Positions 3,503-28,140 of a stretch of DNA of 64,000 nt are shown here, in pieces (position 1 is the stretch's first letter; every line of letters starts with the position of its first letter). The DNA comes from Mustelus asterias (Eukaryota). Below the pieces are notes generated by a model, which saw only the letters and a list, made by a program, of their open reading frames with translations, did not search any database and was not told the origin of the DNA. The DNA is taken from positions 37,324,001-37,388,000 of the forward strand of contig NC_135819.1 in the NCBI RefSeq assembly GCF_964213995.1, given 5' to 3'. The position numbers and the translations under genes were made by a program.

Positions 3503-5355
3503 TTTTCCTTTTTGCTCTAAGAATATTTTTATTGCAGGTTTTCATTTTACATTTGCCAGAAATGCAACAAATCCTCCAAACATTTCGTACAGCACAGAGT
3601 GAGCATCATTCCACACAAACATACAGAAAAGACCAATAAATATTCATACAAATTATTCCAATTATCCATCATTGCTATCATTGTAGTCTGCATCTCCTCT
3701 TATACAGATAAAGAACGGATATCAGACAGAGTGGGGAACCTCAGGACAACAGGATAGAGCACATGGCCCCACATTGCACACCCTCCCCCATAGACAGGGC
3801 TCAAAATATACGGAATCCCTTATGGGGTAATGTACAAGAGCCTGATACGGCATTCCATGACCCACCCCTTTGGTACTGCCCAATGCATGGTGGACAGTGA
3901 GAAGGTGCCCCTTGGGCATTGCCATTTTGCTCTTTGGGCAGTGCCAGGGGGCCCAGGCTGGCACTGACAAGCTGGCAATGCCCAGGGGGCACCCCCCTTA
4001 CCGCTGACCCCCTGGGGGGCTCGATGGCCTCCGTTCACCCCAGTGGGGATCGGACCACCAACTCCCCGCCAGTGGGGAGCTGTTGTAAACCTCGCTGGAG
4101 TGGAACACATCTGGCAGGGGCGGGAGAGGCTCGCGGGCCCTGGGATTTCAGTCCCAGGCTCCCTAATGGGATTTAGATAATTTATGTGAATTTAGATAAT
4201 TTATACAGCATCGCGCCGATTTCTGACACAGAGCTGATGGCGCCGGTAATCCGGTGCCTGGAGACTCACGGAGGTCGTGGCATTCAGCAGGGAGCCCACT
4301 ACACGGCGTCCGGTTGAGTCTCCCAGCCCGCCACACTGCGAGAATTGCACCTCATATGAAAGATCAGGATTCAAATCTCAAGAGCACAAAGTTCAGGATT
4401 AATGATGGACTAACAGGATAAAATAACCATCCACAGGGCTAGAAAAGGCCAAAGCCATGACAAGGGTCACCAAGCAACATCCAGGATCAATCCAGAGTTT
4501 CACCGAAGCCTCTACACCTCCGCCATGTCGTCATCCTGAAGCCGCGGCAAAGAAAAGTCGAAATTCCGGTGGGTGACGAGGACCCGCACTACCGGCCGCC
4601 CCCAACCCTTCTCGATGAACACCGAGGACAAAATAACGCAAGACCAGTGGTCGGAGCCTTTGACCTGCCCCAAGCCTCTAAAACCGGATACAATTTGCTT
4701 CATCGAACTCGAGACACTCGGCCTTCAAATCGAGATTGTGAAGGCACGGCAGCTAATTCTCTATTTCAGCCGGGAATTCATCCCCAGCTCCCCTCAGGAG
4801 ACCGGGCTCACAGATATTCCCTCTCCAGTCCCATCTCCCCAAGTCAGCCAGGATGTACAACACACCATGCAGCAGAGATTTCCAAAAACTGAAGGTTCTT
4901 CACTGAGGAAACTGCCCTCTCGACTAACTGGATTCTCTTCCCCCCCCCCCCACCTTTATCCATCATTTTCAGGATATCTTGCGCTTCATCAAAAGGAGCA
5001 CCAGAAATCGGTGCCAAGGAGCCAGACCATTGTCCACAACTTCACCCATAATGTCGGCCATTATGTCGATGCCAAAGCATCACTGAGGCATAGGCCCACT
5101 CGTCAGCCAAACCTCCACAGCGAACTGGACCCCAGCCTGGCCATCTCCATTTGTCTCGATCAAACAAGGATTTTCTTGAGTTAACTCGGATCCCCTTTGC
5201 CAAAAGCTAGTCAGGATCAGAGCACCGATTATACACATTAGTATCGGATAATCATGGGCTGTGCATCAGGATGAAAAACAAATGAATAGATGAGCAGCAC
5301 CAGACCTCGCAAAAACGCAGCCTCTCTGGCAATACTTTATGTGATTACTTCCCCC
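3503..5355 (-). mobile_element. L1-derived element with ORF1 remnant and no ORF2 (HAL1-like), interrupted by a MITE
   Basis: Minus frame ~4870-4640 LADLGRWDWRGNICEPGLLRGAGDEFPAEIEN*LPCLHNLDLKAECLEFDEANCIRF*RLGAGQRLRPLVLRY resembles the L1 ORF1p RRM; AATAAA (3528-3533, minus) and a decayed A-tail near 3503-3513. Confidence 0.6.
3726..4352. mobile_element. GC-rich non-autonomous DNA transposon fragment (Harbinger-type MITE)
   Basis: GC-rich block with internal inverted motifs ending gcgagaattgcacc, like other ggg(c/t)..aatt termini in the window. Confidence 0.5.
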
Positions 5356-26798: not shown

Positions 26799-27132
26799 GA
26801 ATCATAGAATCATAGAATTCCTACAGTGCTGAAAGAGGCCATTCGGCCCATCCAGCCTGCACCGGCAACAATCCCACCCAGGCCCTATTCCCCGTAGCTC
26901 CACATATTTACCCTGCTAATCCACCTGACACTAAGGGCAATTTAGCATGGCCAATCCACTTAACCTGCATATCTTTGGAGTGTGGGAGGAAACCAGAGCA
27001 CCCAGAGGAAACCCACGCAGATATGGGGAGAATGTGCAAACTCCACACAGGCAATGACCTAAACTGGGAATCGAACCCAGGTCCCCAGCGCTGTGAGGCA
27101 GCAGTGCTAACCACTGTGCCACCGTGCTGCCC
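26799..27132 (-). mobile_element. HE1 V-SINE, tail type B, full length
   Basis: Head, V domain, (gattctat)n tail. Confidence 0.9.
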
Positions 27133-27446
27133 TAAAACTCAAACCACTTCTGGCAGCGGTGGGATACTGAGGTTCTGCTGACTTGCACCAAACCAATGCA
27201 AAAATATTGAAGCATCTCCAAGTGTGAATTACATTCAGCGCACATCAGAGCTCTATGGTCTTTGACATTGGTTTAAAAGACCATTGTGATGGAAGCTGAC
27301 CCTATCCACAAAACTGGCCAATTAATCAGGGTGGCATGTTTTTACAAATAGCATCTTTTGGGACCCTTCAATGGGGCTCCCCAAGTTTTCTTTAGAAGGT
27401 GCACAGACATTACTACCAGTTTTTCAAAATGTTAAAATAATTTAAA

Positions 27447-27778
27447 TTTTTTAAAATACTTTTCCAATTCAATCAAATCAAATCCAATTCAGAGTCTCAA
27501 CAAGTTGAGACATTTCCGATCCAGGCTGACAAGACAGGGCAAGCGACCATTTACCCTGTCCTGGGCCTGATCTACATGAGCCAAGCTGATTGGAGGAGGG
27601 GGAGGTTTCCTCCTCCAAGGCTTGATCTCATTTGCATCTTAGCCAAAAGGCCGAGATGCCGCTTTTAAAAATTGCTTCATATGAATATATGAAGCTTAAA
27701 TACAACCCAACAGCCTCAGCCAAGCACAGCATCCTCTCCACACTACACTTGATCTTAGCCAAAAGGCTGAGAAGCGAT
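27447..27778 (-). mobile_element. U2 snRNA-headed structured short retroposon candidate (SINEU- or Keno-like)
   Basis: U2 nt 1-37 at 27778-27742; second U2 nt 7-27 copy at 27656-27636; four further hairpins; A6 tract at 27452-27447. Confidence 0.65.
27742..27778 (-). pseudogene. RNU2: U2 snRNA 5' fragment (nt 1-37)
   Basis: ATCGCTTCTCAGCCTTTTGGCTAAGATCAAGTGTAGT, 36/37 identical to the vertebrate U2 5' end. Confidence 0.9.
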
Positions 27779-28140
27779 ATTAAAATTACTTTACTAAGAA
27801 ACTGATTAGGGTACACCAACGAACTAGTAAATGGTTCAGTGTAGATCTTTTTGAGTAATCAGGACTCACAAATGCACGGACAGACACCCTTATTTAAAAT
27901 GCTTATAGTTTTCACCAGGTTGTCACTCAGATAAATCAAGGATTTTCTTTAGAGGAAAAAAGTTAAACAGTTACATTCTGGAACGCTGCCTGATTACATT
28001 GGGTCTATTTGTGATTATGCAAATAACTTTGAATAGATAGTTGAACTGTAACTTCACTTCGGAAAACTGGCGCAATTTCAAACGCAATTTGAACCCAGAT
28101 TGCTGATTGCGTCTAATTTAAAACCAGGCTTCATTGTTCG

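Follow-up and report, generated by a model that had tools for sequence, protein, structure and literature searches.

The minus strand of a 64,000-nt stretch of Mustelus asterias DNA (the window; contig NC_135819.1, positions 37,324,001 to 37,388,000) carries a sequence that starts like a U2 snRNA, turns into something else within forty nucleotides and ends in a run of A. What such a sequence is, from where it could be transcribed and what moves it are the questions this locus raises, since SINEs usually carry a promoter within the head and snRNA heads cannot. An earlier note, made from the letters of the window, had proposed an snRNA-headed retroposon or chimeric RNA arising from a U2 gene that carried a Keno-like insertion.

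The element and its family

The window copy (27778-27447, minus strand) is a single member, belonging to a mid-age subfamily, of a family of non-coding U2-headed retroposons of ~330 nt (Table 1). Aligned to the genome's own U2 gene, it begins exactly at U2 nt 1 and matches nt 1-37 at 36/37 positions, just as the earlier note had read it, and the described switch to non-U2 sequence and A6 end were also seen, the 3' end being GAAAAGTATTTT followed by A6 at 27447. The head length of 37 nt holds for this copy, which has GT and not AT at nt 38-39, and needs correcting for the family, most copies of which match U2 up to nt 39. Rfam scored the element as U2 at 44 bits (E 5.6e-07) against a cut-off of 46, and no model passed its gathering score anywhere in the window; across the element there was no Rfam match to tRNA, 5S, 7SL or a ribozyme, nor to any family beyond the U2 fragments, and no likeness to the U1 and U5 of the same genome. 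A U2 gene or simple U2 pseudogene was ruled out because the match to the genome's U2 ends at nt 37-39, with no colinearity beyond nt 39 (Sm site, 3' stems), and a classical Pol III SINE was rejected because the head is U2 and the only A/B-box-like words are loose, ~8 nt apart and within U2-derived parts. The ORFs of the window are repeats, and a common tRNA-headed SINE with an ATTCT-type repeat end lies ~315 bp downstream of the element (26800-27132, minus strand).

Table 1. Features of the window copy (window coordinates) and of related loci elsewhere in the genome.
Feature	Position or locus	Strand	Basis or remark
Whole element, ~330 nt, U2-headed, non-autonomous	27447..27778	minus	family matches, subfamily assignment
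U2 snRNA nt 1-37 head, one mismatch at nt 11	27742..27778	minus	family head to nt 39
Decayed antisense U2 head	27704..27733	minus	predicted pairing with head nt 11-34
Short hairpin	27673..27696	minus	loop length varies by subfamily
Second internal U2 stem-loop I copy	27636..27659	minus	element nt 120-143; 23/24 to U2 nt 4-27
Perfect octamer ATGCAAAT	27630..27637	minus	kept in 57/62 aligned copies
Long hairpin starting with U2-like word AGATCAAG	27577..27630	minus	
Long hairpin with the sole two-sided change	27519..27572	minus	G-C to A-U, 9 copies
7-bp hairpin, near-invariant	27494..27511	minus	sample chosen on its 25-mer, so invariance partly built in
Tail: GATTT repeats, then AAAGTA (Keno 3' end-like), then A-tract	27447..27493	minus	A6 at 27447-27452
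5' flank TTAGT/AAAGTAATTTTAAT; putative left TSD	27779..27797	minus	fits family AGY/AW bias
Putative right TSD, weak	27431..27443	minus	about 11/14 in AT-rich DNA
A-to-G hypermutated copies, sense strand	L154 (C1:53.88 Mb), L101 (C1:13.51 Mb)		
Keno 5' ends with U2 upstream DNA	L228, L230, L241, L239, L242		

An exact 25-mer from the body occurs at 4,712 places in the genome, a lower bound on copy number, and the reversed-sequence control at 0. The 40 candidates scored, out of 2,861, were all near full length, with 93-100% identity. Sampling 90 loci around the first 100 listed 25-mer places on contig C1, with five overlapping loci dropped, gave 110 copies in 91 clusters, and 67 of the 110 start within U2 nt 1-8; the body is thus neither single-copy nor unlinked to a U2 head, and the snRNA-headed family postulated in the earlier note, rather than a one-off, is borne out. 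Copies end in an A-tract, and of the 89 clusters with an intact 3' end 34 have recognizable TSDs, 9-23 bp long with a median of 14 bp, whilst none was found in the other 55. The possible TSD flagged for the window copy itself is weak, with about 11/14 matches and 3 extra bases in AT-rich DNA, whilst those at other copies are clear.

Several subfamilies were recognized, which differ in head-body junction, indels and loop lengths, the junction being fixed inside each. The youngest is nearly identical: the 20 best matches to a young copy, a set biased by having been picked as full-length matches, showed a median of 4 differences in ~294 nt, with one pair identical and 14 beginning at nt 1. Amongst matches to the old subfamily, 24/30 were also scored as U2-headed. 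With their subfamily-specific junctions and indels, the copies form a master-copy family and not the sum of independent chimeric retrocopies, and they carry the marks that would place them in the SINEU class, namely a U1/U2-derived head, a non-coding length of <500 bp, poly(A), TSDs, oligo-T and no internal promoter.

Fifteen of the 91 clusters are tandem, and in these both new element and Keno insertions reuse the 5' junction site of existing copies, far above chance. The downstream copy of the tandem pairs L076, L121, L154 and L170 starts at U2 nt 28-29, which suggests a second nick site within the head. A tree-path test of tandem order found the upstream copy younger in 12/18 cases, which was not significant (p 0.24), and its later arrival was shown directly only by the junctions in L086, L089 and L154.

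Beyond this genome, 9 coded organisms and two metagenomes have sequencing runs that contain a 328-nt copy at a word share >=0.25, rows with a share <0.2 being ignored. None of the positive runs listed is on record as RNA, which speaks neither for nor against expression. As the U2 head alone accounts for only a few percent of the words, the body is likely to occur in several species, with contamination possible: two of the three runs of organism C were nearly without the words, one positive was a hot-spring metagenome, and some positive runs may be contaminated or mislabelled.

Transcription and mobilization

The true U2 genes form arrays on C24, which are probably collapsed in the assembly. 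Copies behind snRNA upstream DNA, which the earlier note had suggested looking for, do exist: five stand directly behind U2 upstream DNA (L064:1851, L106, L108, L109 and L110), with a PSE-like motif at L064:1851. Four of them have their 3' junction at U2 nt 38, and L064:1851 runs into a Keno fragment instead. This last copy, the sole promoter-proximal one in the main U2 array, has 300 bp of upstream DNA near-identical to that of intact genes, then U2 nt 1-40 and then the element body; having lost part of its sequence and diverged (on average 92% to the three copies nearest to it), it is not the current master. Farther along L064 a second element copy lies between U2 38-55 and U2 38-191. Genome-wide, the element tail is joined to U2 nt 38 at 6 exact places (control 0), to which L108 can be added. 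The other four promoter-proximal copies are preceded by at least 235 nt of upstream DNA from a second, minor U2 class of genes or pseudogenes, a 448-bp unit with 86-90% identity to the main U2. Nearly every locus of this class examined (L225-L236; C21:28.05-28.08 Mb, C14, C1, C8 and C7) has Keno or the element.

The upstream regions of U1, U2 and U5 have in common a PSE-like motif at -62 to -65. When the matrix was derived from U1 and U5 alone, both the main U2 class and the copy at L064 scored 12.7 at -62. The motif upstream of the second U2 class reached only 3.5-5.3, less than the best chance-level score within the element (7.5), so a promoter there is putative. A motif scan of 3 element copies found no internal PSE above shuffles. 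Runs of T4-T5 at element nt 15, 108 and 131 make Pol III transcription unlikely. The octamer, together with 10 nt that match the U2 PSE region, had suggested a HeT-A-like arrangement in which a copy would transcribe the tandem copy after it from an snRNA promoter of its own; this was rejected on account of the missing PSE, the wrong spacing and the lack of tail-only 5' tags in 91 clusters. From these upstream sequences, the U2 promoter likely drives the U2-embedded copies.

In some scattered copies nt 1 is preceded by U2 upstream DNA: 153 nt in L238, 93 nt inside a TSD in L240, 13 nt in L113 and its duplicate L114 (counted once) and 5-7 nt in L066-L068, L107, L111 and L112. The short extensions were selected by search pattern, and a part of them may be due to chance; that of L068, 7 nt long, lies between TSD and nt 1. 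A copy within a U2 locus has an extension of 32 nt. As mature U2 snRNA has no upstream DNA to give, U2 loci provided some of the templates. The 93- and 153-nt extensions reach back beyond the PSE position and thus point to read-through and not to +1 initiation. Most copies have no extension, which fits +1 initiation but also template switching to U2 RNA.

Switching could account for the family as a whole if the element were read through from any upstream host promoter, its head were restored by reverse transcriptase jumping to U2 snRNA and the copies in U2 genes were targets only. Such switching does occur, given the extra U2 fragments found 5' of L066, L067, L112, L113 and L240; the tandem clusters (15/91) also speak for this route, and Kojima proposed flank-driven transcription for SINEU (PMC4494074). 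Nevertheless, the up to 153 nt of U2 upstream DNA at scattered copies is impossible to obtain from mature U2 snRNA, a tail-only 5' tag from an upstream copy was found in 0 leading copies of the 91 clusters (the single regex match was unrelated flank) and the head-body junction is constant within subfamilies, and we regard this account as improbable.

The LINE found at U2 37/38 encodes an ORF1 with ZCCHC3-type RNA-binding domains and a zinc knuckle, whose protein-cluster matches are mostly chordate CCHC clusters, together with an APE endonuclease, an RT and a zf-RVT domain. The accessible text of PMC4640811 defines Keno by an APE endonuclease, the Tx1 clade and a U2 target, and by that definition the LINE is Keno and not Utopia; of the two U2-targeting LINEs linked to the site in the earlier note, the first is thus retained and the second dropped. 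The 5' head of Keno is U2 nt 1-33/35. Its 3' 25-mer occurs at 282 exact places, and 0 of the first 30 of these 3' ends (all on C1-C3) continue into U2 nt 38, so Keno is also scattered.

Element insertion sites have AGY before the nick in 11/34 cases against a background of 4.4% (p 1e-7), and A or T at +2 in 32/34 against 55%, AGY/AW being a loose form of the TAGT/ATC of U2. Keno sites have AGY in 3/12 (p 0.014; 12 of 13 sites kept, L200 being without upstream context). At three of the 30 Keno 3' ends an element copy follows immediately, and the TSD extends into the head of that copy, where about 5e-5 would be expected per copy; two more abut a copy, and two further cases of Keno beside the element were noticed by eye among 30 old copies. 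Four insertions are inverted into the antisense U2-like segment of the element, the other strand of which presents a U2-like site (CAAGTGCAGC/ATCC in the family), and in L029 and L101 both flanks set the nick at CAAGTGCAGC/ATCC, that is in the 37/38 register. The common site, the AGY/AW bias, the adjacency and the inverted insertions together indicate that Keno-type machinery likely moves the element.

The promoter could also be borrowed as above whilst some other L1/Tx1-type A-tail LINE moved most scattered copies and Keno only those at the U2 site. Such a division of labour would fit the more than 99% of copies that lie elsewhere than in U2 genes (which contain about 7 of at least 4,712) and the shortness of the tail common to both, but Keno is itself scattered, has the same bias and occurs at the element 5' junction far more often than the expected rate given above, and we consider a second mover hardly probable.

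Sources within U2 genes, transcribed by the U2 promoter and copied into new sites by Keno, are in our judgement quite probably what the data reflect. U2-embedded copies would be transcribed by the host U2 promoter from U2 nt 1, some of the templates would undergo A-to-I editing before insertion, and Keno ORF2p would prime on the A-tract and reverse-transcribe the element RNA into new sites. Most new copies would land outside U2 genes, lack a promoter and be dead, whilst one inserted at U2 37/38, its head being the gene's first 37-39 nt, would turn into a new source, and such sources would in turn give rise to successive subfamilies. Set against this are the divergence of the single proximal copy in the main array, the motif scores of 3.5-5.3 in the second class and a tail likeness of about 10 nt. 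The mechanism of the earlier note, as distinct from its origin for the body, is largely supported by the source-type copies and the Keno site link, as far as sequence can tell.

Keno 5' ends, too, were observed to start at U2 nt 1 with U2 upstream DNA before them, and Keno copies scattered elsewhere carry 92-145 nt of such DNA (Table 1); Keno itself likely uses the U2 promoter, to judge from these 5' ends. At L061 (G000:C24:44838000-44847200) a U2 array unit holds one intact and one Keno-disrupted U2 gene, and 13 intact U2 genes stand at 8,035-bp spacing in C24:44.84-44.94 Mb; with one unit read, the pairing of intact and disrupted genes appears to have been tandemly amplified.

Body, RNA fold and editing

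The earlier note took the body to be a Keno insertion in a U2 gene, reduced to a remnant. Full-length Keno in this genome does have the same site and a U2 head, the AAAGTA tail (Keno-like over about 10 nt) is present in 47/62 aligned copies, and an extinct Keno family could have had a different UTR. However, neither the window body nor that of the old subfamily aligned to the Keno copies compared (best E 1.1 or worse), AAAGTA is absent from 30/30 old-subfamily copies, so that the Keno-like tail was acquired later, and several body segments trace to U2. The proposed remnant does not survive this comparison and is, we think, very unlikely. An internally deleted Keno of the SIDE type was rejected in the same way, as only the U2 head and the ~10-nt late tail are common to both, even though insertion at the partner's site is seen.

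Two U2-derived segments had escaped the earlier note, the second stem-loop I copy at element nt 120-143 and the decayed antisense head at nt ~46-75. The U2 word AGATCAAG occurs three times in 3/62 copies and twice in 21/62, at the base of long hairpins, and in old copies it also starts the hairpin at 27519..27572. Sequence comparison suggests that 5' fragments of U2, both sense and antisense, make up at least part of the body; their repeated addition or fold-back would be its simplest origin, and would resemble the recurrent additions in SINEU-1.

The element is highly structured, as the earlier note had surmised (MFE -132.5, z -6.23, 0/100 shuffles as low), and the median fold z over 13 copies was -7.9. 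Two-sided changes were found at 1/67 pairs, no more than in shuffles. On a single-sequence fold, changes common to >=4 copies keep pairs in 22/40 cases versus 22/83 for private changes (p 0.003), and three such folds agree (p 0.003, 0.0005 and 0.003); a ratio of 15/16 versus 15/59 is circular, its structure being derived from the same alignment, and is not relied on. As common changes tend to keep the predicted stems, these appear to be under selection and the fold likely matters for mobility. One predicted long stem buries the U2 branch-point-pairing segment. The octamer sits in a largely unpaired stretch, and the same octamer is found near -200 in two U1 upstream types.

The strong fold, the pair-keeping common changes, the U2 promoter context and the conserved unpaired octamer might also be expected of a chimeric small RNA under host selection (variant snRNA or regulator) with the scattered copies as its retrocopies, yet no array of genes turned up that is stable and homogeneous, the few source-type loci belong to different subfamilies, subfamilies replace one another and loops change fast, Rfam offers nothing beyond U2 fragments and selection for mobility explains the fold equally, which makes such a source most unlikely. 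A host-functional chimeric snRNA is not needed for the data.

Private changes are skewed towards A>G (101 versus 55 T>C, p 7e-8), whilst G>A and C>T are in balance. Of the A>G changes, 30 come from two copies among 100 (Table 1; 18/19 and 12/16), and compared with their nearest natural neighbours A>G makes up 22/25 and 13/21 of the differences. ADAR editing of a double-stranded template before insertion is the likely cause. We lean slightly towards a fuller version of the source-copy reading, in which the element would be an independently arisen and still active snRNA-headed SINE with two compartments, sources in U2 genes and promoterless spread elsewhere. Put together from U2 pieces of both senses, its selected dsRNA would be ADAR-edited in the germline and hide the branch-point sequence, and the element would provide Keno with a target of its own.

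Relation to known retroposons

SINEU-1/2/3 are described from crocodilians only, with a preference for Mariner-N4_AMi, and their transcription was left an open question (Kojima 2015, PMC4494074). Compared by architecture, and with SINEU by description only, the element here resembles them in its snRNA head, length of <500 bp, poly(A), repeated U2-derived segments, tandem insertions, internal oligo-T, absence of an internal promoter and extra snRNA fragments added 5'. A Keno-related LINE of the Tx1 clade moved SINEU-1/2/3 (PMC4494074, where Keno is also described), and the element shares site, bias and adjacency with Keno. Unlike SINEU-1/2/3, it targets U2 37/38; some of its copies follow directly on U2 upstream DNA, and some bear 5' extensions derived from such DNA. 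By analogy, the element would work like SINEU and its source loci like an R2 SIDE. If the reading is true, it answers how SINEU-type, snRNA-headed elements get transcribed, the point PMC4494074 calls open, with U2-upstream copies, 5' extensions tracing to U2 loci and a partner LINE at the same site all held in one genome. Recent activity makes both the promoter borrowing and the trans-mobilization by Keno testable in cells. Keno with relaxed specificity, thousands of lineage markers and ADAR-type editing preserved in genomic copies come with it, in what is a variant of selfish element and not a new class of biology.

The chondrichthyan CmiSINE and SacSINE1 are likewise short non-autonomous retroposons, but according to the accessible text of PMC5499810 they have tRNA heads with A and B boxes and L2-type tails, unlike the U2-headed element. 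The term 'snRNA' does not occur in the main text of that paper as available, and no such shark element is mentioned in the accessible parts of PMC5499810, PMC5381603 and PMC13034634. Our literature search, which covered few subscription papers and did not extend to Repbase Reports, returned no U2-headed SINE outside crocodilians and none sourced from U2 genes; among the papers searchable, this would be the first snRNA-headed SINE outside crocodilians, and a repeat library may already hold an unnamed entry for it.

The element is like Keno in its 3' junction at U2 nt 38, its U2 head in this genome and the same loose bias outside U2, with a TSD of U2 38-55 (L064) as against 38-58 for Keno (L061), and unlike it in encoding nothing and in having a body not homologous to the Keno copies compared. 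Utopia, in the accessible text of PMC4640811, uses the same U2 site, and its crocodilian families also show weakened specificity and U2-like junctions; it is autonomous and has a restriction-like endonuclease, not an APE domain like that of the LINE occupying the site in this genome. As described in the available parts of Eickbush and Eickbush (2012, PMC3414825), R2 SIDEs and R2/R1 SIDEs are, like the element, non-autonomous, occupy their partner's site in a multicopy RNA gene and need that gene's transcription. R2 SIDEs are there internal deletions of their partner, with a 5' ribozyme, in rRNA genes, whereas the element does not derive from its partner, matches no Rfam ribozyme, keeps the 5' end of the host RNA and is spread genome-wide. 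An internally deleted Keno derivative of ~1.2 kb with a U2 1-35 head was observed directly upstream of a U2 gene (L059:260-1500), preceded by a short U1-like 5' fragment.
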